Source of the DNA: an uncultured bacterium
Lineage (GTDB): Bacteria; Omnitrophota; Omnitrophia; Omnitrophales; Abzuiibacteriaceae
Reading direction: 5' to 3'
Assembly: GCA_964387845.1 (NCBI GenBank)
Contig: CAYLXA010000005.1
Span: 128,001-192,000, forward strand
DNA length: 64,000 nt
Within the stretch, counting starts at the first letter, position 1. Every line of letters starts with the position of its first letter. This document shows, one piece after another, positions 906-58,481 of this stretch. The translations under genes were made by a program, and so were the position numbers. The notes below the pieces were generated by a model, which saw only the letters and a program-made list of their open reading frames with translations, made no database searches and was not told the DNA's origin.

Positions 906-1145
906 ATGGTATACTATTCTGCCATGGATTACATTGGAGAAGAAATTCAAAATTTGCGTAAAAGAGCAGGGCTCACTCAACGAGAATTCGCGAAGCGAGT
1001 GGGTGTGGGGCTTAGATTTATTCGTGATCTTGAACAAGGAAAATCTACCGTACGGCTTGATAAGGTAAATCAGGTGCTTGAATTTTTAGGGCATCATTTG
1101 GAGATTGTTGCCAACCGTGAACGAAAAAATATTCAGAAAAGCTAG
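906..1145 (+). CDS. HTH XRE-family regulator, HipB-like antitoxin/repressor
   Basis: 79 aa with helix-turn-helix LTQREFAKRVGVGLRFIRDLEQG; first gene of three-gene hip-like operon. Confidence 0.7.
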   Translation: MVYYSAMDYIGEEIQNLRKRAGLTQREFAKRVGVGLRFIRDLEQGKSTVRLDKVNQVLEFLGHHLEIVANRERKNIQKS

Positions 1146-1461
1146 AGTTAACTACAAAGATGAACTTGCCGGTTATTTACAAGAAACCGAGAATGGTTTT
1201 CAATTTCTGTATGATGAAAATTATTTGCGTTCCGGCGGACAGCCAATTTCTGTGTCACTTCCTTTAACGAATGAGCCTTACGAATCAAAAGAGCTTTTTA
1301 GTTTCTTCCGCGGACTTTTGCCGGAAGGTTGGTACCTCGATATCGTGAGTGCGGCTAAGAAAATCGATACCAATGATTCTTTCGGCCTGCTTCTGGCTAC
1401 CACAGGCGACACGATCGGCGCAGTGACCGTATATCCAATCCGGGAAAGCGATGAGTCCTAA
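1105..1461 (+). CDS. HipS-like protein (stand-alone HipA N-terminal subdomain)
   Basis: 118 aa with HipA N-terminal/coupling-domain features (LPEGW, GxDxxGA); overlaps hipB 3' end and the downstream kinase gene start; alternative GTG start at 1114. Confidence 0.6.
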   Translation: MLPTVNEKIFRKARVNYKDELAGYLQETENGFQFLYDENYLRSGGQPISVSLPLTNEPYESKELFSFFRGLLPEGWYLDIVSAAKKIDTNDSFGLLLATTGDTIGAVTVYPIRESDES

Positions 1462-2311
1462 TCTGTTTGAAGAAATGTTTGGCACGAGCGAAGCTCCTAC
1501 AATCCCACTTTCGTTGAAGGATGTTCCTCTTCAAGCGCAAGTGATGGCGGGGTATATGTCCATTTCAGGGGTGCAGCCAAAATTGGTGCTGAAATTGGAT
1601 AAGCGTAAAAATGAGCTGACGGTGGCTCAGACGGATGGTGAATATATTTTAAAACCGCAAATCCCGCATTTCCCCCAGACGCCCGAAAATGAAAACTGCT
1701 GTATGGATATCGCTCAGGCGTTTGAGATTGAGGTGCCGCCCCATTGCCTTCTTCCACTGAAAGACGGAAGCCTGGCTTATGCGGTGAAGCGTTTCGATCG
1801 TGTGAGCGGCGAAAAAATCAATCAAGAAAGCTTTTATCAAATTCTTGAAAAAAGAGACAAATATATGGGCTCTCTGGAACAAATCGGTAACAGCCTGAAA
1901 CAAATTTCCGTAGTGCCGGGCCTGGATGTTCAGCTTTTCTTTGAATTAGTCGTTTTCAATTTTCTGATCGGCAATGGTGACGCGCATTTTAAAAATTACT
2001 CCATTTCTTATTTAAAGGATGGCATCCGGCTTTCTCCGGCCTATGATCTGGTTTGTTCCAAGCTGGTGATTCCGGGCGATTCGGATTCCGCACTCACGAT
2101 CAATGGCAAGAAGAATAATCTTAGGCGGGGCGATTTTGATGTGTTGGCTGCTTATTTAAAAATTCCGGAAAAGGTTCGTTACGATAAGTTTGCAGGTCAG
2201 CTTGGAAAAATGGAGCAATTGATTCGAGCCAGCCAACTCTCGGCAGATTTTAAAAAGACGTTTATTCAAATAGTTTCTTCACGTTTTGATCGGCTTAAAT
2301 TGGTGAATTAA
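1451..2311 (+). CDS. HipT-like Ser/Thr kinase toxin (HipA C-terminal kinase domain)
   Basis: 286 aa; Gly-rich loop MSISGVQPK (SIS motif) and catalytic GNGDAHFKNYS motif typical of HipA_C. Confidence 0.75.
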   Translation: MSPNLFEEMFGTSEAPTIPLSLKDVPLQAQVMAGYMSISGVQPKLVLKLDKRKNELTVAQTDGEYILKPQIPHFPQTPENENCCMDIAQAFEIEVPPHCLLPLKDGSLAYAVKRFDRVSGEKINQESFYQILEKRDKYMGSLEQIGNSLKQISVVPGLDVQLFFELVVFNFLIGNGDAHFKNYSISYLKDGIRLSPAYDLVCSKLVIPGDSDSALTINGKKNNLRRGDFDVLAAYLKIPEKVRYDKFAGQLGKMEQLIRASQLSADFKKTFIQIVSSRFDRLKLVN

Positions 2312-3595: not shown

Positions 3596-3628
3596 GGCTT
3601 GAAGCTTGAAGCTTGTAGCCTGCAGCCC
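3596..3628. repeat. tandem heptamer array (GCTTGAA GCTTGAA GCTTGTA GCCTGCA), family A intergenic element
   Basis: 7-nt periodicity read directly. Confidence 0.6.
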
Positions 3629-3647
3629 ACAATCCTATCCGCCGAGC

Positions 3648-3667: not shown

Positions 3668-4014
3668 TTCAATCTGGACACAAAGCTTTTTGAGGCATAA
3701 ATCCTACTTAAATTGTGCCTGTACCTGTCCACCAAAATGATGCCTGGCACCTTTCTGTTAAGGATTCATATGCAACTCCTTTTTCCTGTAACATCAGGAT
3801 ATCAGGTGTTGCACTAGTAACTTGAACTCAAGCAGGTACCGAAGTAGAAATCCACTTCCTATCCGCTATACGTTGTTCGCGAACCAATAAAATAGTTGTT
3901 GAAATATAATATAAAGATTGTAAAATAATTACCTCACGCAAACAGTAAACCCCTCTCACGCCTTCACGCGCAAAATCAAACTAATTTCGTAATGCGTTCA
4001 CAAGAAAGGCGGAT

Positions 4015-4809
4015 TTGCCAATGAAAAAAGAAAAACTCATTTCTCAGAGGGATGGTTTACCAATTCGTTCAAGCGGTCCTTGGATCCGCAAAAAACATCA
4101 CTATTTAATCAGATATGCTGACATATTTACCCGAGGGATGAAGAACAAATGGGAATTGACGTACCTTGATCTTTTTGCCGGGCCCGGATGCTGCTTAATT
4201 GAGAAAGAGATGATCGAATTAGCCGGATCTCCGTTACTTGCATTAGGTTTTGATTTTAGGAAATACATTTTTATTGAACAGGATCATGATGACCTTGAAG
4301 CATTGAAACAGCGGTGCTCAAAATCACCAAAACTAAGCCAGATTCAATTCATAGAAGGGGATTGTAATAAGAATATTGATCAAATTCGATTGACGGGATT
4401 AACGCTGGCTTTTATCGATCCAACTGGTATTGACGTTCATTTTGAAACGATTAAACGACTCACCTCTTTAGGGCCGGTGGACCTGCTAATAAACATACCA
4501 TTTCACATTGATATCAAGCGCAACTTCACGAAGTATATAAAAACCCAACATAAAAAATTGGATCTCTTTCTTGGCGGTAAGGTACCGTGGGATAAATTGC
4601 ATCAAGAAAGGGATGTTTTAGAGTTATACAAAAAGCGAATAAAGGATTTGGGGTATCAAACCGTAGAATACAGCGACATAGTTGTCAGTAATACAAACAA
4701 AGTTCCTATGTACTTTCTTTTCTTTGCGTCCAAGCATTCGCGTGGTGTAGAATTCTGGAAGAAAATTACCAAGAAAGACGAAACCGGACAACTGGAGTTA
4801 GAACTCTAA
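4015..4809 (+). CDS. three-Cys-motif partner protein TcmP-like (class I SAM-MTase-like motifs)
   Basis: 264 aa; N-terminus matches TcmP family pattern; DLFAGPG (motif I-like) and FIDPTG (DPPY-like motif IV); immediately upstream of DUF5131 gene. Confidence 0.55.
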
Positions 4810-4811
4810 GA

Positions 4812-5570
4812 ATGAGCGATAAATCAAATATCGAATGGACCGACGCGACATGGAATCCGGTAACGGGATGCAATAAAATCAGCCCCGGATGTAAAAACTG
4901 CTACGCCGAAACTTTCGCTGAGCGCTGGCGGGGAATTCCGGGCCATCCCTACGAACAGGGTTTTGACCTCAGATTATGGCCTGAGCGTGTCGGCTTGCCA
5001 TTATCGTGGAAAGAGCCGCGGATGATTTTTGTCAATTCCATGTCTGATCTTTTTCATAAAGATGTTCCGGATGACTTTATAGGGAAAGTATTTGAAACGA
5101 TGCTCAAAGCTAATCAGCATACTTTCCAGGTTCTGACCAAGCGGCCTGAGCGCATGGTTGAATGGACCAAGAAAACATTCGGCAATCAAAAATTACCGCG
5201 TCATATCTGGCTTGGTGTTTCGGTTGAAAACCAGGATTACGTATGGCGAATCATGTATCTTCAGCAAACACCGGCTCAAATCCGTTTTCTTTCGGTTGAG
5301 CCTCTTTTGGGGCCTGTTGTTTTAAAATCTTCAAATTTAAAAGGCATTCATTGGGTGATCGTGGGTGGCGAGAGCGGACACAGAGCCCGTCCTATGAATC
5401 CCGACTGGGCGCGTGATATCCGCAATCAATGCGAAAAATATGGCGTCGCTTTTTTCTTCAAACAATGGGGCGCTTTTAACGCGAAAGGCGAACGCGTTGG
5501 TAAAAAAGCCGCCGGCCGGGTTCTCGACCGCAGAACCTGGAACGAAATGCCAATTACAATCCCCGCCTAG
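4812..5570 (+). CDS. DUF5131 / phage Gp37-Gp68 family three-Cys-motif protein
   Basis: 252 aa; [27 protein letters not shown] signature (C-x6-C-x2-C). Confidence 0.65.
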
Positions 5571-5593
5571 AATCCATCTCTCGTGGTTTAAAC

Positions 5594-5626
5594 GAGAAGC
5601 TTGTAGCCTGTAGCTTGCAGCTTATC
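5594..5626. repeat. tandem heptamer array (GAAGCTT GTAGCCT GTAGCTT GCAGCTT), family A
   Basis: read directly. Confidence 0.55.
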
Positions 5627-5744
5627 ATCATGATATAATTCCTATCGCGACGGCGCCCACATTGACCGCCGCGTGATGGCACTTGCGCCAGCGTTACCGC
5701 AGGTGCCTGCGAACGAAGTGACGCAGAATAAAGCGCAAGTGTCT

Positions 5745-6092
5745 ATGTCCGACATCAAGAAACTCACCGAAAAGATCAAGCAATTCCGCGACGAACGGGA
5801 TTGGAAGCAATTCCACAACCACAAAGATATGGCACTTTCACTTGTTCTTGAAGCCGCTGAACTTTTAGAACATTTCCAGTGGAAAACATTGGATGAAGTT
5901 GAAAAGCACGTGAAAACCTCAAAAGAGGATGTTTCAGATGAGCTTGGCGATGTCGCGATCTATCTTTTCGAGCTCGCCGATAACTTAGGGATAGACCTAT
6001 CAGAAGCGGTAGAAAGCAAGCTTCTTAAGAATGCCAGAAAATATCCTATACAAAAATCTAAAGGCACCATAACCAAGTACAATCAATTGTAA
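5745..6092 (+). CDS. MazG-like nucleotide pyrophosphohydrolase
   Basis: EHFQWK..E.ELGDV..YL..LA..LGIDL..A...KL.KN..KYP MazG signature; start taken at internal ATG 5745 (ORF track 5673). Confidence 0.65.
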   Translation: MSDIKKLTEKIKQFRDERDWKQFHNHKDMALSLVLEAAELLEHFQWKTLDEVEKHVKTSKEDVSDELGDVAIYLFELADNLGIDLSEAVESKLLKNARKYPIQKSKGTITKYNQL

Positions 6093-6099
6093 AGATTAA

Positions 6100-6876
6100 A
6101 TGCCCGGCAATGAATCTGCAGTAATAAAGTATTTGTTCAGAAATAAGAATCGTCTCGAGTTACCTCATTTAGGTTTAATAAAATCAATTGGGTTTCCAAA
6201 TGGACTCACAAATAACTACAAAGAAATAAAAAATGAAAATGAAATTTTAGAATGTTGCTCAGACAATGCTCGAAAAAAAGCAGATGTCTATATTAATGGG
6301 CAAGGCGTATCAATAAAACAATCAGGAGGAAGTTTTTCTTTTAATCGTTTGCAGCGTGCCGAGTTAATAGAAGTTTTTGCTAGTTTAATTTTTGATGCCC
6401 CTCATAATGTTTTAACTCAATTAGATAAAGAAGTTGAAAAATTTCATTTTGGAAAATTATCAGGACGTGGTAGGCCGTGGAAAGATTTTTTCTCAAATAA
6501 AGAATTTTATGCTTTAACAAATGCTCTTATGATGTTGCAATCTCCAAATTATGGACTTTCTCTTCATCCCGCTAAATTTATTCTGGAGGCTTCAAAAAAT
6601 TTAACAACCAATCCGAGTTTAAAAGTTTATACTTTTGATGAATATTTTGAACGTTATAACGAGTTTTTCAGGATTGCTATAAGACGTGTTTGGTTGGGGC
6701 AGAATAGTAAATCTGAGCATGGCCGTGCAAAAAGTCTAATAGCAAAACCTGAGAATGCAACCTGGGTCTTTAATACAATTTCCGGAACGCCAAGAAGTGG
6801 TTGGAAAGTTGATTTTCCAAAGTCGGAAAGAAGAACTGTGTATTATTTGATGATAGAAAAAGTAAATTCAAAATGA
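6100..6876 (+). CDS. hypothetical protein; candidate Type II restriction endonuclease of the adjacent vsr-dcm module
   Basis: 258 aa, low GC, 4-bp overlap with vsr; possible D...(V)SIK PD-(D/E)xK-like element; no family recognised. Confidence 0.35.
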   Translation: MPGNESAVIKYLFRNKNRLELPHLGLIKSIGFPNGLTNNYKEIKNENEILECCSDNARKKADVYINGQGVSIKQSGGSFSFNRLQRAELIEVFASLIFDAPHNVLTQLDKEVEKFHFGKLSGRGRPWKDFFSNKEFYALTNALMMLQSPNYGLSLHPAKFILEASKNLTTNPSLKVYTFDEYFERYNEFFRIAIRRVWLGQNSKSEHGRAKSLIAKPENATWVFNTISGTPRSGWKVDFPKSERRTVYYLMIEKVNSK

Positions 6877-7301
6877 CATTTGTATTTCAAACGACAAGTC
6901 AACGCTCCGAGTTAATGAAAAAGATTAAAGGAGTTAACACTAAGCCAGAAATTGCTTTTGCAAAGAAACTTGAATTATACAAAGTCAAGTTTAGAAAACA
7001 TTTTAAAAAACTCCCTGGAGTACCGGATTTTGCTATTTTGAGAGGTAGAGTAGCGGTGTTTATCGATGGGGAGTTTTGGCATGGATACAATTGGGTTAAT
7101 AAAAAGAAAAGGATAAGATCCAACCGACAATACTGGATTAAAAAAATAGAAAGAAATATACTAAGAGATTCGATAAATATGAGAGAATTAAAGAAAATAG
7201 GTTGGTATCCTTTAAGATTTTGGCAGCATGAAGTTGTTGCTGAGGGTGATAAATGTATAAAGAAAATCGAAAAAATAATGCAGCGACGAAGTTCAAAATA
7301 G
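6873..7301 (+). CDS. vsr: very-short-patch-repair endonuclease Vsr
   Basis: TSQRSELM...TKPE...FIDGEFWHG... conserved Vsr core. Confidence 0.8.
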   Translation: MTFVFQTTSQRSELMKKIKGVNTKPEIAFAKKLELYKVKFRKHFKKLPGVPDFAILRGRVAVFIDGEFWHGYNWVNKKKRIRSNRQYWIKKIERNILRDSINMRELKKIGWYPLRFWQHEVVAEGDKCIKKIEKIMQRRSSK

Positions 7302-8383
7302 CATCTTTTTTTGCTGGCTGTGGCGGCCTAGATTTAGGTTTCCAGCAAGCGGGCTTTGATGTTGTTTGGGCAAATGAATACGATAAAACAATTTGGGCTA
7401 CCTACGAACACAACCATCCTCATACGTTTTTATGCAAGAAATCTATTATCGATGTCAAATCAGATGAAATTCCAACTGTTGTTGGCATGATAGGTGGCCC
7501 GCCATGCCAAAGCTGGAGTTTAGCCGGAGCCATGAGGGGAGTAAAAGACCCGCGAGGTAAACTTTTTTATGAATACATAAGAATCTTGGCCGATAAACAA
7601 CCATCATTTTTCTTAGCCGAAAATGTTGCGGGCATTGTTTCTAGCACTCATGTGAATTCATTTGAAAATATCCTTAAAAAATTCGAAGAAATTGGTTACG
7701 TTACTTCATATAAATTGCTTGATGCAAAATCCTACGGCGTTCCTCAGGATCGGAAAAGAGTTATCATTGTAGGGTATTCTAAAGGTTTACATAAGAAATT
7801 TGAATTCCCGCAAGAAACTCATGGTGTAAATTCAGCGAATGGCGACTTATTCAAGCCACATTTAAAACCCTATGAAACTTTACGCTCTGCAATTGACGAT
7901 TTGCCTAATCCGGTGCCTGCTAGTTTGAAAAATAAGTCGAACAGCAGAATTCGTATTCCAAATCACGAATATATGACAGGAGGTTTTTCTACCATTTACA
8001 TGTCACGAAATAGGAGAAGAAATTGGAATGAGCCTTCATTTACAATTCAGGCGGGAGGCCGGCATGCACCGCTACATCCATCAAGCACTGAAATGATTAA
8101 AAAAGAGCCAGATTGGTGGGTATTTAAAAAGAAAGACAAAAAGGCTTATCGGCGAATGTCGGTAAGAGAATGCGCACGAGTTCAAACCTTCCCTGATAAA
8201 TTCATATTCAAATATGATTCAATTGCGGATGGTTATAAAATGGTTGGTAATGCAGTTCCCGTCGAGTTGGCGCGTGTTATAGCATTAAGAATAAAGTCAG
8301 ATTTGATACCAGAGAAAAATAATCTTAAAAGATCATCCCTTCGCAAAACACCCTATTCCGAATTGGTGTTAGCTTCCTCATAA
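7253..8383 (+). CDS. dcm: DNA (cytosine-5)-methyltransferase
   Basis: motif I FAGCGG, motif IV GGPPCQSWS, ENV motif VI, C-terminal target-recognition region. Confidence 0.85.
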   Translation: MYKENRKNNAATKFKIASFFAGCGGLDLGFQQAGFDVVWANEYDKTIWATYEHNHPHTFLCKKSIIDVKSDEIPTVVGMIGGPPCQSWSLAGAMRGVKDPRGKLFYEYIRILADKQPSFFLAENVAGIVSSTHVNSFENILKKFEEIGYVTSYKLLDAKSYGVPQDRKRVIIVGYSKGLHKKFEFPQETHGVNSANGDLFKPHLKPYETLRSAIDDLPNPVPASLKNKSNSRIRIPNHEYMTGGFSTIYMSRNRRRNWNEPSFTIQAGGRHAPLHPSSTEMIKKEPDWWVFKKKDKKAYRRMSVRECARVQTFPDKFIFKYDSIADGYKMVGNAVPVELARVIALRIKSDLIPEKNNLKRSSLRKTPYSELVLASS

Positions 8384-8424
8384 ACCGTAAACTGGACACC
8401 GTCCGGCAGAAAAAAGGTTGTTGA

Positions 8425-9540
8425 ATGAGGCAAATATTCATAGTAGTGGCAGGAGGCAATGCTGCTGCTGATCGTCACTTCGAAGATACAATCCAACGTA
8501 AACGTACCTTAGATGAAGTGCGGCAATTTCTATCTTCCCAAGAAATTCATGAGATCGAATCAGTTTATCATACAGCACCTTTTATTGTCTGGGGCGCTAT
8601 TCCCGGCCCAATGAATATTCCGCGTTGGCAAAGTATGCGTGTTGGCGATATTGTTTTGATTTACACAAGAGGACATATCCGATTAATTGGCGAAGTGGCA
8701 TCAAAAGTAAGAAGTAATTCGTTGGCTCGCTATTTTTGGAAAGAAACACCCGAAAACAAAACCTGGGAATTGATTTATTTTATTGTAAATGAACAAAGGG
8801 TAAATATACCGATGCCTTTATTAAATGAAGCGCTTGGTTATAGCGCAAGTTACTCTCCGAGGGGATTTAGTTCTGTCGATTCTGATAAGGTCAAATCATT
8901 CGTTAATCGTTATGGCGATATATTCGAAGGGCTTAAAACACTCAGTAAAGGCGAGAAACTAATCGAAATTTCGCCAGCGAAAAAGTTAGAAGTCCAACAG
9001 GTTGAAGAAAAGATTGAACAATCATCGAATGAGCATGACGAAATGCAATGGCGGTTAATTAGATTGGGCAAATTGTCAAGGTACGATGTTTGGGTTCCCA
9101 GAAATGATCAAGGGCACAGCTTTGGAGGTCAACGATTTCGGGATTTTGTGTTGCCGGAATTCCACGAGAGTTTAGATGTTCCACCCAGTATTAAAAATAT
9201 CGATGTCGTGTGGAAATTTGGTCCTTATTCGATCACATCTGCATTTGAAGTCGAACATTCAACATCCGTTTATTCAGGAATTTTAAGGCTTTCGGATCTG
9301 AGAACCGAAACACCGAATTCACAATACCCACTTTTTATTGTTGCTGACGAAGCAAGAAAGCGGAAGGTATTTTCGGAACTTGCGCGCCCCACTTTCTCAA
9401 ATCCCTTTTTGCGACTTCACGAAGTAATACGATTTTTGAGTTACGAAAGAATCAGGGACATTGATGAAAAGTATAAGCAAGAACCTGAATTTGAACCGCA
9501 AATACTCTTTACTGCCGGAGAAACTTTCGAGAAAAATTAA
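8425..9540 (+). CDS. hypothetical protein with EVE/PUA-like N-terminal domain and putative PD-(D/E)xK-like C-terminal nuclease domain (candidate modification-dependent restriction enzyme)
   Basis: VGDIVLIYTRGHIRLIGEVASKV resembles EVE core (VGDLVFFYHS..IVGIAEV); C-terminal DVWVP...IDVVWKFGP...AFEVEHS pattern. Confidence 0.4.
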   Translation: MRQIFIVVAGGNAAADRHFEDTIQRKRTLDEVRQFLSSQEIHEIESVYHTAPFIVWGAIPGPMNIPRWQSMRVGDIVLIYTRGHIRLIGEVASKVRSNSLARYFWKETPENKTWELIYFIVNEQRVNIPMPLLNEALGYSASYSPRGFSSVDSDKVKSFVNRYGDIFEGLKTLSKGEKLIEISPAKKLEVQQVEEKIEQSSNEHDEMQWRLIRLGKLSRYDVWVPRNDQGHSFGGQRFRDFVLPEFHESLDVPPSIKNIDVVWKFGPYSITSAFEVEHSTSVYSGILRLSDLRTETPNSQYPLFIVADEARKRKVFSELARPTFSNPFLRLHEVIRFLSYERIRDIDEKYKQEPEFEPQILFTAGETFEKN

Positions 9541-9729: not shown

Positions 9730-9840
9730 ATGTGCGGAAGATATTCATTAACCCTCGATAAAAAGAAACTCCTCGCGGAATTCGCGCCCGAGCCCCGCGC
9801 CCACAAATTTCTTGATTTCCATTATAGGGGTAAGGATTAA
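9730..9840 (+). pseudogene. 5' fragment of a SRAP (YedK/HMCES, DUF159) gene: MCGRYSLTLDKKKLLAEFAPEPRAHKFLDFH then out-of-family tail and stop
   Basis: MCGR N-terminus with catalytic Cys2 is the SRAP hallmark; only ~31 family-like codons. Confidence 0.55.
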
Positions 9841-9936: not shown

Positions 9937-10533
9937 TTGTTGTACATCATGACAACAAGTTTAATCTTTCAGCTCCAGCAAACCAAGTCGCCGCTCAGGA
10001 AGAAGCTTTTATCGTACTTCTTCACGAATCCCGGGGCGAAGCTCTATCTCAGAGATATCGCGCTCAAACTCCATGTCGATCCCGCGAATCTTTCGCGCGA
10101 GCTCAAGCGGCTCACCGATGAAAGTGTTTTTGTTGCCCAGAAGCAGGGTAATCTCAAATATTTCTCTTTGAATCCAAAGCACGCCTTATATGAAGAATTT
10201 AAGTCCATGATTTTTAAGACCATCGGCGCTCAAGGCGCGATTGAAAACCTGTTAAGTAAAATCCCGGGAATTAAACGCGCTTTTATTTATGGTTCGTTTG
10301 CCAAAAATACGGAGCGTGCGGATTCCGATATCGACCTTTGTATGATCATCCAAAAAAAAGAATTCAAAGAAAATCCTTTCCTTGAGGGAATTCATAAACT
10401 CGAAGGTGAACTTGGCAGGGAAATCAATTATACTTTCTTTACCGACGAAGAATGGCAGTCCAAGCAGCGATCTAAAGATAGCTTTGTCACCGGAATTCTT
10501 AAGAATAAAAAAATCGATCTCATGCATATATGA
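9937..10533 (+). CDS. minimal nucleotidyltransferase (MNT) with N-terminal winged-HTH, antitoxin-like partner of HEPN
   Basis: AFIYGSFAKNTERADSDIDLCMI NTase motif; wHTH N-terminus; ATGA overlap with next gene. Confidence 0.75.
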   Translation: MLYIMTTSLIFQLQQTKSPLRKKLLSYFFTNPGAKLYLRDIALKLHVDPANLSRELKRLTDESVFVAQKQGNLKYFSLNPKHALYEEFKSMIFKTIGAQGAIENLLSKIPGIKRAFIYGSFAKNTERADSDIDLCMIIQKKEFKENPFLEGIHKLEGELGREINYTFFTDEEWQSKQRSKDSFVTGILKNKKIDLMHI

Positions 10534-10994
10534 AAAAAATTGATCTTCAAGATTTAATTCAAGAAGGGCAGCTTCAAGAAGAGCCAGGTATCGGCTGGGA
10601 CCAGGTGGAGCGTTTAATTAAACGGGCATTTGAAGATTTGAAATCAGCCGACCGGAACATGTCCTTTGATGAGCCGGGCGCGATGGATTTTATCTATAAG
10701 GCGATGTTTCATGCTGGGAACGCTTTGATTCGTTCATATGGGTTTAGGCCGGGCGCTACCAGACAGCATCAAGGTGTGATTACGGCAGTTGGGCGGATCT
10801 TGGGCGTTGAATCAAAGGCGCTGATTCTGAAATTTGATAAACTCAGGAAACGCCGCAATGAGTTTGAATATCAGGGCATTTTTGCGATGGGAAGAGAAGA
10901 GTTGAAAGATTCCATCGAACAAGCCAAACAATTGGTTGGCGTGATACGAAAAGCACTCGAAGATTCTCATCCACAAAAGCAGTTTAAATGGTAA
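10530..10994 (+). CDS. HEPN-domain protein (putative toxin of MNT-HEPN pair)
   Basis: 154 aa helical protein with KRRNEFEY R-x4-6-H-like motif; genetic coupling to MNT. Confidence 0.55.
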   Translation: MKKIDLQDLIQEGQLQEEPGIGWDQVERLIKRAFEDLKSADRNMSFDEPGAMDFIYKAMFHAGNALIRSYGFRPGATRQHQGVITAVGRILGVESKALILKFDKLRKRRNEFEYQGIFAMGREELKDSIEQAKQLVGVIRKALEDSHPQKQFKW

Positions 10995-11024: not shown

Positions 11025-11107
11025 TGCTACTCATTAACACTCGATAAAAAGAAGCTCCTCGCGGAATTCGCGACGAACCCCGCGCCCACAAATTTCTTGA
11101 TCTCCAT
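11025..11107 (+). pseudogene. second SRAP 5' fragment (CYSLTLDKKKLLAEFATNPAPTNFLISI), start codon lost
   Basis: ~77-bp direct repeat of 9745-9823 at ~90% identity. Confidence 0.5.
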
Positions 11108-11315
11108 CAAAGTTATATATACTATTCACCATAGTAAATAAGCATTAACCCCCTCCTCGCTCAAAGTATTAAATTCTCCAAGCTTCCTCCACATAAAGTC
11201 TCTTTTTTCACTTGCGCTTTATGCGCAAGTACCATCTCTCGAGGCTCAAAGTTAGCCTCGTATTGCTAGGCCGCGTAAACTATGGTTGACACTGTGTAGC
11301 ATATAGGGTACACTT

Positions 11316-13468: not shown

Positions 13469-13543
13469 GGGCTTCATGCTGCATGCTACAAGTTACAAGC
13501 TGCAGGTTTGAAGCTTGGAGCCTGAAGCCTGTAGCTTTGAAAC
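13469..13543. repeat. heptamer-periodic palindromic element (CATGCTG CATGCTA CAAGTTA CAAGCTG / TTTGAAG CTTGGAG CCTGAAG CCTGTAG), family A
   Basis: read directly. Confidence 0.6.
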
Positions 13544-47689: not shown

Positions 47690-48125
47690 AAGGCTTTTCT
47701 CGGTAGATGATCGCCTGCTGCATTTTGCAGTGGGAGGAAAGTCCGAACTTCACAGGGCAAGGCGCCCCGTAATACGGGGTGGGGCGGGAGCAAATCCCGC
47801 TTTAAGGAAAGTGCCACAGAGATTATACATCCGAAGTGGTAAGTGATAAGTGGTAGGTGGTAAATAGTAAATAAAGGAGTTATTGGCTTCTCATCAACTT
47901 AGCACTTACAACTTATCACTTACTACTGGATAAAGGTGAAACGGTGGCGTAAGAGACCACCGTGTATCGGCGTAAGCTGGTATGCAAGGTAAACCCCGCC
48001 TGAAGAAAGATGAAGATCGCGCAAGTTGACTTGTTCAGCTCAGGGCGGCCCGTTCTGCGCGCGTCTAACAAGATCGAATGACCCGAGGTTGCAAAATCCG
48101 GGCTAGACAGATGATCATCGCTTCT
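47690..48125 (+). ncRNA. rnpB: RNase P RNA (bacterial type A) with heptamer-repeat hairpin in P12 position
   Basis: P4 GGAGGAAAGUCCG; GGUGAAACGGUGGCGUAAGAGACCACC; AAUCCGGGCUAGACAG 3' P4 strand; boundaries approximate. Confidence 0.8.
47836..47928. repeat. family D heptamer hairpin (GTGGTAA GTGATAA GTGGTAG GTGGTAA ... CTTACAA CTTATCA CTTACTA) inside rnpB
   Basis: read directly. Confidence 0.65.
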
Positions 48126-48127
48126 TC

Positions 48128-48212
48128 AGTTGTAAGTGATAAGTGATAAGTGGTAAGTTGTAAGTTTTAAGAATTCATAAACTTATCACTTAAAACTTAC
48201 CACTTACAACTG
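48128..48212. repeat. family D heptamer hairpin immediately 3' of rnpB
   Basis: GTTGTAA GTGATAA GTGATAA GTGGTAA GTTGTAA ... rc arm. Confidence 0.65.
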
Positions 48213-48259
48213 GGGAAGAAACAGAATTCGGCTTATGCCGAGAAAAGCCTCTCTTTTTT

Positions 48260-48684: not shown

Positions 48685-49076
48685 AAGTTGTTTTTGACAC
48701 CAATGTCTTAATCTCAGGTTTTCTGACAACCACCGGCCTTTGCGAGCGCGCACTGAACATCGGGCTCAAACGCCATGCGGTCATTTTATCTGAGTTTATT
48801 CTGAAGGAATTTGGTGAGAAATTGCACCATAAATTAGAAGTGCCGTTAGAGAAGGTTTTGCGTACAGTTACTTTTTTAAAGAAAAGAACGCTGGTTTTGG
48901 ACATTCCGAACAACCCAAAAATTGAGTTTTCAGATAAGAAAGATATCCCCATCTTGAGTCTGATAGAAGCCGCGAAGCCAAATTATTTGGTCACAGGAGA
49001 TAAGCGTTTGCTTGGCTTAAAGAAGTTTGGCCCAACCCTCATCATCTCCGCCAGGGAAGGAGTAGAGGTTCTTTAA
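48681..49076 (+). CDS. PIN-domain toxin (VapC-like)
   Basis: VVFDTNVLISG...YLVTGDKRLL acidic tetrad pattern; ATGA overlap. Confidence 0.8.
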   Translation: MKVVFDTNVLISGFLTTTGLCERALNIGLKRHAVILSEFILKEFGEKLHHKLEVPLEKVLRTVTFLKKRTLVLDIPNNPKIEFSDKKDIPILSLIEAAKPNYLVTGDKRLLGLKKFGPTLIISAREGVEVL

Positions 49077-49077
49077 A

Positions 49078-49180
49078 GCAAGCGTCAAGCCACCGGCTAC
49101 AGGCCTCAAGCTTAAAAGGCTGAAGCTTAGGGCTTATAGCTTGAAGCCTGCAGCCTGCGGCTAGTAGCTTGACTACAGAT
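49078..49180. repeat. family A heptamer-periodic palindromic element
   Basis: ...CAAGCTT AAAAGGC TGAAGCT TAGGGCT TATAGCT TGAAGCC TGCAGCC TGCGGCT AGTAGCT... Confidence 0.55.
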
Positions 49181-50138: not shown

Positions 50139-50162
50139 ATGCCTCTTCCCGAATAACGAGCC

Positions 50163-50236
50163 ACAAGCTTCAGGCTGCAAGCTCCAAGCTTAAGGCTTTA
50201 AGCATGAAGCCTGGGGCCTGCAGCTTGAAGCCGCTA
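50163..50236. repeat. family A heptamer-periodic palindromic element between pyr leader and pyrR
   Basis: CAAGCTT CAGGCTG CAAGCTC CAAGCTT AAGGCTT ... CCTGCAG CTTGAAG. Confidence 0.55.
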
Positions 50237-58415: not shown

Positions 58416-58472
58416 TGCTACAAGCTGCAAGCCGCAGGCTTCATGCCTGGAGCTTGAAGCCTGTAGCCTGAA
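58416..58472. repeat. family A heptamer-periodic palindromic element
   Basis: CTGCTA CAAGCTG CAAGCCG CAGGCTT CATGCCT GGAGCTT GAAGCCT GTAGCCT GAAGC. Confidence 0.55.
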
Positions 58473-58481
58473 GCAAAGAAT

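Follow-up and report, generated by a model that had tools for sequence, protein, structure and literature searches.

Two adjacent genes, TcmP and DUF5131 (Gp37/Gp68), lie near the start of a 64,000-nucleotide (nt) stretch of DNA from an uncultured Omnitrophota bacterium (contig CAYLXA010000005.1, positions 128,001 to 192,000), here called the window. Gene pairs of this kind are already known at the level of annotation. The NCBI Prokaryotic Genome Annotation Pipeline (PGAP) names TcmP (TIGR04474) and DUF5131 (PF07505) as families, together on plasmid pCAR1 and others. PADLOC has already flagged the pair as a defence candidate, PDC-M41 for the short form of TcmP (models PDC-M41A/B) and PDC-M30 for the long form (PDC-M30A/B). 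PDC-M41/M30 are among 145 untested candidates that "guilt by embedding" predicted from the loci of BREX, DISARM and type I restriction-modification systems (bioRxiv 10.1101/2024.01.29.577857). Because these candidates were predicted by embedding and are untested, membership is uninformative on mechanism. PDC-M41/M30 are not among the eight candidates tested in a later paper, and a defence role of the pair is putative. No experiments on DUF5131 or TcmP were found in the literature or the Protein Data Bank (PDB), and the full-text mentions that were found are confined to lists or tables; the first-pass annotation of the window had likewise called such pairs uncharacterised. Here we describe the pair as a self-contained two-gene module. 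We see about an even chance that it is a coupled two-enzyme base-modification module that depends on S-adenosylmethionine (SAM) and acts on nucleic acid, most likely DNA.

The closest characterised enzyme to DUF5131 is spore photoproduct lyase (SPL; SplB, PF20903; PDB ID: 4fhc). SPL has the canonical C-x3-C-x2-C motif and about 340 residues, whereas DUF5131 has C-x6-C-x2-C and 252 residues. The H-donor cysteine of SPL is without a conserved counterpart in DUF5131, which usually has a methyltransferase-like partner. Another SPL-like radical-SAM enzyme, gp53 of phage M6, isomerises N-alpha-glycinyl-thymidine on DNA (PMC8989533). The likeness to gp53 lies in an SPL-like radical-SAM enzyme working on a modified DNA base in a setting of phage-host conflict. 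However, gp53 has the canonical CX3CX2C motif and belongs to a multi-enzyme 5-hydroxymethyldeoxyuridine (5-hmdU) pathway with a kinase, aGPT-Pplase and a pyridoxal-phosphate (PLP) enzyme, none of which is present in the window. The "radical SAM mobile pair" A/B (TIGR04471/TIGR04470) is also a two-gene mobile module, but both of its partners are radical-SAM enzymes and it has no TcmP; the window DUF5131 matches A with E 9.3e-18, far below the curated cut-off. On the methyltransferase side, RlmJ (the 23S rRNA m6A2030, that is N6-methyladenosine, methyltransferase; PDB ID: 6qe5) and Legionella lpl1258 (PDB ID: 2oo3) have DPPY where TcmP has DPTG. RlmJ is a stand-alone housekeeping gene; TcmP, by contrast, is mobile and has a radical-SAM enzyme as its partner.

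Three open reading frames (ORFs) occupy positions 4015-4809, 4812-5570 and 5673-6092 of the plus strand. The first-pass annotation had named them TcmP, DUF5131 and a MazG-like gene, and the family matches bear this out. By profile hidden Markov model (HMM), the check that it had proposed for the pair, TcmP matches TIGR04474 (E 1.1e-39, 136.9 bits against a cut-off of 53) and DUF5131 matches PF07505 over model positions 1-243 of 243 (E 1.8e-104, 349 bits against 28.9). The MazG-like ORF matches PF12643 (E 7.5e-21, 74.6 bits against 27). The adjacent pair also matches PDC-M41A (E 7.7e-27) and PDC-M41B (E 9.2e-106), without structural difference from the PADLOC models and their adjacency rule. 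To speak of a candidate modification or defence system, as had been done, is therefore a fair description, though not a new one.

The probable start of TcmP is the ATG at 4021, with AAAGG just 5' of it. No Pfam family is matched, PHROGs gives no function, and sequence and profile searches of the PDB returned only noise. The protein carries DLFAGPG at residues 52-58 and AFIDPTG at residues 132-138, so the earlier observation of DLFAGPG together with FIDPTG in place of DPPY is correct. In an alignment of 63 relatives G56, P57, G58, D135 and P136 are invariant. Motif IV (D135-P136-T137-G138) has T in at least 90% of these relatives, and no aromatic residue; across 150 family representatives the third position is variable (T in 39, E in 16, F in 7 and Y in 5). 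The AlphaFold2 model of TcmP is confident (predicted local distance difference test, pLDDT, 94.4; predicted template modelling score, pTM, 0.92) and has a Rossmann-like methyltransferase fold with a glycine-rich motif I. Compared by eye, TcmP and Escherichia coli RlmJ have the same order of motifs: YLDLFAGPG/YLDTHAGAG, AGSPLLA/PGSPLIA and FIDPTG/LIDPPY. On the model, TcmP is predicted to be a SAM-binding class-I fold of the RlmJ/Trm1/RsmD type, a clade that alkylates exocyclic amines of nucleic-acid bases. The predicted likeness to the rRNA m6A methyltransferase RlmJ is new in this analysis.

The three cysteines of DUF5131 (Cys20-x6-Cys27-x2-Cys30), which the first-pass annotation had picked out, are invariant in 68 close relatives. 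The family is 55-80% identical across phyla. In an alignment of 20 sequences that reaches archaeal viruses, the three cysteines, Ser76, S161-x-E-P-L, G185-x-E-x-G and Lys217 are invariant. Cys207, a possible counterpart of the H-donor Cys140/141 of SPL, is not conserved in this alignment. The cysteine spacing departs from the canonical CX3CX2C of radical-SAM enzymes and is a known non-canonical variant of the DUF5131 radical-SAM subgroup. The modelled protein has the radical-SAM fold, a partial or full triosephosphate isomerase (TIM) barrel with the cluster loop after strand 1. Its closest solved structure is SPL, and two methods give SPL as its nearest relative. PDB sequence and profile searches gave only noise, with no sequence similarity to SPL detected, and PHROGs lists the family as "unknown function". 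SFLD/RadicalSAM.org places DUF5131 as a radical-SAM subgroup in Megacluster-5, beside SPL and MJ0683-like proteins (PMC9477430). DUF5131 is thus a predicted radical-SAM enzyme, and among characterised enzymes its nearest relative is SPL, which acts on DNA. That its modelled fold appears most like that of SPL is also a new result.

For the comparison of loci, 80 DUF5131 loci (55-73% protein identity) were fetched from genomes of many phyla, together with contigs that carry close homologues. The phyla include Omnitrophota, Planctomycetota, Chloroflexota, Acidobacteriota, Cyanobacteria, Actinomycetota and the Alpha-, Gamma- and Deltaproteobacteria. With an iterated TcmP HMM, a TcmP-family gene was found directly beside DUF5131 in about 75 of 87 loci, in more than 10 phyla. 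Gene order and strand both vary; in the window the TcmP stop is 2 bases from the ATG of DUF5131. No conserved third gene was found beside DUF5131: 530 neighbouring ORFs fell into 504 clusters, each present in at most three loci. Since the adjacency of TcmP is widespread and no third gene is conserved, we take TcmP-DUF5131 to be a self-contained two-gene module with variable surroundings.

Horizontal transfer has carried this module into chromosomal defence/toxin-antitoxin islands, onto plasmids and into temperate phages. Searches found DUF5131 in 442 of 72,556 plasmids, the conjugative pCAR1 among them, and in 180 of 50,697 phage records; cyanophages, a halovirus and soil actinophages are among the carriers. 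In the Gordonia phages Pytheas and BaxterFox (loci L170 and L169), convergent TcmP and DUF5131 genes lie between the integrase and the immunity repressor. This region of actinophages often carries defence genes that are expressed from the prophage. In BaxterFox the full DUF5131 ORF (positions 3960-4973 of the locus, minus strand, E 6e-75) is absent from the GenBank annotation, which has small plus-strand ORFs instead. In Sinorhizobium meliloti a putative transcription unit groups TcmP with hna, a validated defence gene (PMC12445080). Scanning IMG/VR for TcmP yielded 5 loci, a number too small for statistics. The DUF5131 family holds more than 8,000 clusters at 90% identity, and an exhaustive profile search gave 6,213 TcmP representatives at 50% identity. 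Both families are large, highly conserved and mobile, and for neither is an activity or a solved structure known.

The most informative new results of this analysis are partner swapping and a gene fusion. Located 10 nt downstream of a TcmP that is 52% identical to that of the window (P0206, loci L131 and L185) is the gene for a 301-residue protein with the canonical CX3CX2C motif (PF04055), not DUF5131. This partner is of the PA0069/Rv2578c/"mobile pair B" type; its match to PF07505 is sub-threshold, and in L131 it matches TIGR04470 with E 3.8e-17, far below the curated cut-off. The fusion protein (P0367, 634 residues), found among the best 150 of the 6,213 TcmP representatives, is encoded by one continuous ORF on a 9.5-kb contig. 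Its residues 25-300 are a TcmP domain (E 1e-88), which is followed by a true SPL-family domain (PF20903, 60.3 bits against a cut-off of 27). The latter aligns with the sequence of the SPL crystal structure across the cluster motif (E 1e-7). Judged from these sequences, the SPL-like radical-SAM partners of TcmP appear to come from three lineages or more, and TcmP can apparently be covalently joined to one of them. The partner swapping and the fusion together argue for a physical complex. Because SPL acts on DNA, the partnering of TcmP with SPL-like enzymes also argues for a DNA substrate.

The first-pass annotation had combined TcmP, DUF5131 and the MazG-like gene into one three-gene cassette. 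This does not hold up in comparison with other genomes. The MazG-like gene is absent from 82 of 82 other independent DUF5131 loci, searched both by phmmer and by an HMM of 80 MazG relatives; among DUF5131-anchored loci it occurs beside DUF5131 only in the window and in its duplicate contig. In the window, DUF5131 and the MazG-like start are 174 nt apart, with a repeat element and an extended -10 in between. Since the gene is absent from these other DUF5131 loci, nucleotide depletion, or a MazG-linked nucleotide pathway, is without comparative support. What had been said about its other side is accurate: the MazG-like gene lies on the same strand directly 5' of restriction-modification genes, with 7 bases to the first of them, orf258. 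Its conserved part probably starts at the ATG at 5745 and encodes 115 residues, the length of the relatives. Its best relatives in the PDB are the mouse and human deoxycytidine triphosphate (dCTP) pyrophosphatases DCTPP1/RS21-C6 (E 1.4e-19 across the whole domain). The ExxE...ExxD metal-binding residues align (EAAE and ELGD, against EVGE and ELSD in DCTPP1). It differs from these enzymes in being bacterial, short and island-borne.

In a second survey, 80 loci with relatives 61-75% identical to the MazG-like protein were collected, 43 of them longer than 5 kb. The gene most often found next to this MazG-like family, directly downstream in 37 of the 80 loci, encodes an SLFN-group-3/DUF2075 helicase related to the PADLOC candidate PDC-S41, which suggests a MazG-helicase two-gene module. 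Some of the helicases in these loci (L087-L166; for example L093 6354-8798 and L097 7496-9472) have a PD-(D/E)XK-like region at the N-terminus and an S24 peptidase at the C-terminus; the match of the L097 helicase to PDC-S41 runs end to end. Dcm plus Vsr stand beside the MazG-like gene in 6 of the 43 longer loci, against 0 of 82 DUF5131-anchored loci (Fisher p = 0.0013). The Dcm genes beside MazG relatives belong to three lineages that are 24-36% identical to one another and to the window Dcm, and the endonucleases differ as well (EcoRII-C-like, EcoO109I-like, unassigned). One further locus, anchored on an orf258 homologue, has the order orf258-homologue, Vsr, Dcm, MazG-like. On account of these neighbours, we assign the MazG-like gene to the restriction-modification operon. 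It is probably co-transcribed with the orf258-Vsr-Dcm-NmeDI-like genes for 5-methylcytosine (m5C) restriction-modification. The region thus contains two unrelated modules, TcmP-DUF5131 (4021-5570) and the MazG-like gene with the restriction-modification genes (from 5745). By analogy, the MazG-like protein is perhaps a clean-up enzyme for 5-methyl-dCTP that works alongside Vsr. A preference for 5-methyl-dCTP is a trait of the mammalian DCTPP1 enzymes, and we assume it for the window protein. No paper linking MazG, Vsr and 5-methyl-dCTP was found in the literature.

From the distant fold similarities (12-19% identity) we infer the substrate and the chemistry of the pair, and the order of the steps, the product and the biological role given here are likewise our proposal. 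TcmP would bind SAM, present a flipped-out base and N-alkylate (methylate) it. DUF5131 would reductively cleave a second SAM at its [4Fe-4S] cluster and so generate a 5'-deoxyadenosyl radical. The radical would abstract a hydrogen from the same or a neighbouring base, and this would complete or rearrange the modification. The DNA of the element or the host would thereby acquire a mark, and this might block phages, as the listing as PDC-M41 would have it, or shield the element from restriction. The context of the pair is one of conflict, a low-GC (guanine plus cytosine) island with HipBST-like, MNT/HEPN, Gp49/HI1420 and restriction-modification modules. More tentatively, and with the odds against it, TcmP and an SPL-like radical-SAM enzyme (DUF5131, PA0069-like or SPL-family, interchangeably) might form an unrecognised general two-component machine, either for DNA hypermodification or as the radical "restriction" arm of a methylation-guarded immunity.

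Several observations weigh against a coupled modification of DNA by the pair. Besides the low sequence identity behind the fold comparisons, the structure model of DUF5131 is only moderate (pLDDT 83.9), with a poor C-terminus. The hhalign comparison of the TcmP profile with one RlmJ sequence covered 30 columns of motif I only and was not significant (E 0.023). The motif IV of amino-methyltransferases, (D/N/S)PP(Y/F/W), is not present in TcmP, and without the aromatic residue the transfer of a methyl group to an amine seems not assured. The TcmP-SPL fusion is known from a single metagenome contig and could be two adjacent genes joined via a lost stop codon, although their adjacency would be shown even then. 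In addition, the top structural matches of TcmP are all RNA methyltransferases (RlmJ, TrmR, RlmCD, Trm1, CmoA and RsmD-like), so RNA may still be its substrate. TcmP would then methylate a base of tRNA or rRNA and DUF5131 would add an RlmN/MiaB-like radical step, altering translation during conflict. The weak match of 13 of the 63 TcmP relatives to the RsmD-type PF03602 fits such a pair, as does the label "RNA methyltransferase" that some phage annotators give to DUF5131. We nevertheless consider RNA modification unlikely. The nearest relative of DUF5131 acts on DNA, one protein joins a TcmP domain to a true SPL-family domain, and the genes found nearby are concerned with DNA (restriction-modification systems, DNA methylases, replication genes). 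The solitary copies of DUF5131 count against coupling itself. DUF5131 has no adjacent TcmP in about 12 of the 87 genomic loci and is solitary in many lytic actinophages, and therefore seems able to work without TcmP. The first-pass annotation had called the two genes obligate partners; this agrees with the adjacency seen in most loci but not with these copies. No consistent replacement partner was found in 11 DUF5131 loci that lack TcmP, where the neighbours are M20 peptidase, Schlafen AlbA_2, PLD-like, DUF488 and oxidoreductase genes. Mycobacterium and Burkholderia phages have a longer, solitary DUF5131, which in the two Mycobacterium phages lies amid DNA methylase and replication genes.

The solitary copies also bear on whether the pair is restriction-modification-like or an abortive defence, with DUF5131 as an effector that damages or cross-links invading DNA and TcmP methylation as the mark of self. 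Tight two-gene linkage, free gene order and wide horizontal spread are as in restriction-modification systems, and the candidacy as PDC-M41/M30, the lysogeny/immunity region of the Gordonia prophages, the neighbourhood of hna and the defence/toxin-antitoxin island of the window all point the same way. Yet solitary DUF5131 genes in the early/replication regions of lytic actinophages, and in the loci without TcmP, would be unexpected for a self-toxic effector. We know of no radical-SAM restriction enzyme, and phage-plaquing data for PDC-M41/M30 were not found in the literature searched. A defence of this type is improbable in our judgement, though the likeliest of the alternatives. The same solitary copies, where they lie amid replication and repair genes, would suit a DNA repair module in which DUF5131 undoes lesions, SPL-type or otherwise radical-repairable, as might arise in the tightly packed DNA of phages or elements, with TcmP as an accessory. 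SPL is the closest solved structure and DUF5131 is carried by 180 phage genomes, which is consistent with repair. But SPL needs no methyltransferase partner, whereas about 86% of genomic DUF5131 genes have one; Cys207 is not conserved, and repair functions are not usually so patchy and island-borne in their distribution. A repair role is thus quite unlikely. Finally, TcmP, DUF5131 and MazG could constitute one nucleotide modification or depletion pathway. The three genes are adjacent and on the same strand in the window, and the third-position GC of the MazG-like gene (0.46) is like that of TcmP (0.40) and DUF5131 (0.49) and unlike that of the restriction-modification block (0.22-0.34). Two other MazG loci among the 43 long ones also adjoin a TcmP module: L097 is TcmP-DUF5131-MazG with a 33-nt gap, and L131 is MazG-TcmP-rSAM (radical SAM). 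Against this stand the absence of MazG from all other DUF5131 loci, the 174-nt gap with its own extended -10, and the finding that MazG relatives are mostly beside SLFN-type helicases or m5C restriction-modification/Vsr genes; we read the neighbours in L097 and L131 as co-location in defence islands. The comparative data largely refute the three-gene pathway, which we regard as very improbable indeed.

The features of the region are collected in the table below.

Features of the TcmP-DUF5131 region and of the related loci used for comparison (window coordinates unless a locus is named)
Feature	Position	Strand	Basis or remark
REP-like heptamer run (RAGCYTG)n, left edge of TcmP-DUF5131 module	3599..3629	+	direct repeat with 5587-5614 (family D9)
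sigma-70-like promoter candidate 5' of TcmP (TTGAAA, 16 nt, TAAAAT)	3899..3926	+	10/12 consensus positions; consensus match only
TcmP, short form (PADLOC PDC-M41A)	4021..4809	+	predicted RlmJ-like class-I SAM-dependent methyltransferase fold, motif IV DPTG
DUF5131 (Gp37/Gp68; PDC-M41B)	4812..5570	+	predicted SPL-like radical-SAM enzyme, C-x6-C-x2-C cluster motif
Second REP-like heptamer run, right edge of TcmP-DUF5131 module	5597..5624	+	motif scan and direct-repeat search
Perfect extended -10 TGATATAAT, candidate promoter for MazG and restriction-modification genes	5631..5639	+	read from sequence; not in two-hexamer scan
MazG-like, DCTPP1/RS21-C6-type dCTP pyrophosphatase	5745..6092	+	PF12643, PDB DCTPP1 match; module apart from the pair
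orf258, putative restriction endonuclease partner of m5C methyltransferase	6100..6876	+	no family match; PF00145 neighbours of homologues
Vsr very-short-patch repair endonuclease	6873..7301	+	PF03852 E 9e-20; TIGR00632 E 7.9e-32
Dcm-type C5-cytosine DNA methyltransferase	7253..8383	+	PF00145 E 7.9e-90; TIGR00675 E 3.8e-81
NmeDI_C-like type II restriction-enzyme-like protein	8425..9540	+	PF27126 NmeDI_C; PADLOC REase_II E 8.4e-10
MazG beside Dcm plus Vsr	window 5745-9540; loci L091, L096, L106, L127, L137, L138, L173/L174		
TcmP + PF04055 radical-SAM pair	locus L185 4856-6577; locus L131 6375-7687		
TcmP-SPL fusion P0367	locus L192 1526-3430		

The pair lies in a low-GC island that forms the first 12 kb of the window (GC 0.33-0.45, against about 0.48-0.52 elsewhere in the window). 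The nearest relatives are Omnitrophota metagenome-assembled genomes. All genes of the island are on one strand. They begin with a HipB/HipS/HipT-like split kinase system, followed by a DUF6036 nucleotidyltransferase-like gene, TcmP-DUF5131 and the MazG/restriction-modification block; after this block come an MNT/HEPN pair, a Gp49/HI1420 pair, and then guaB and guaA. At window 906-2311, a helix-turn-helix (Xre) gene, a 118-residue HipA N-terminal-domain protein (PF13657) and a 286-residue HipA_C kinase stand in series. This split layout is that of the tripartite HipBST toxin-antitoxin system and not of classical HipBA. The MNT/HEPN (nucleotidyltransferase/HEPN) cassette at 9937-10994 is bracketed by an 85-nt direct repeat (9742-9827 and 11028-11112, 87-90% identical), which may represent cassette boundaries or duplicated regulatory DNA. 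Outside the island, the bacterial RNase P RNA at window 47695-48250 (RF00010, 183.6 bits) is 556 nt long on a model of 367 positions and therefore has large insertions relative to the consensus.

In the restriction-modification block orf258 overlaps Vsr, which in turn overlaps Dcm. Going by sequence, the C5 methyltransferase, Vsr and an adjacent putative endonuclease would together make up a type II m5C restriction-modification system. The orf258 product matched no family in library scans (Pfam, NCBIfam, PADLOC, PHROGs). The family to which it belongs has no annotation and counts at least 157 members from different phyla. Because its homologues adjoin a PF00145 m5C methylase in 5 of 6 other contexts, orf258 probably represents an undescribed family of type II restriction endonucleases, and in the window it is probably the restriction endonuclease partner of the m5C methyltransferase.

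The pair is bracketed by two forward half-elements of a repetitive extragenic palindromic (REP)-like heptamer repeat, 1,988 nt apart. The heptamer core motif has 14 matches in the window against 0.31 expected. Six runs were found, all of them intergenic (3599-3629, 5597-5624, 13470-13540, 49070-49170, 50140-50230 and 58420-58475), and the element often occurs as inverted half-sites that could potentially fold into long hairpins. The flanking repeats were considered as cassette ends or att sites and rejected, as no fewer than six intergenic regions of the window contain the element. An integron-like cassette array, with genes on one strand and repeats between cassettes, was also considered; the repeats do not look attC-like, and no integrase search was made.

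The recurrence of a DCTPP1-like pyrophosphatase beside Dcm and Vsr suggests an undescribed "nucleotide-pool hygiene" accessory of m5C methylation. For the TcmP family, the RlmJ-like fold, the SPL-like fold of its partner, the partner swapping and the fusion together point to a physically coupled, DNA-directed reaction of two SAM enzymes. To our knowledge, radical-SAM chemistry on DNA is so far represented only by SPL, in repair, and by gp53 of phage M6. If TcmP and its SPL-like partners do form a general machine, it would be the first cellular radical-SAM system for DNA modification or restriction. If the pair modifies DNA, radical-SAM chemistry would join cellular DNA epigenetics and immunity.

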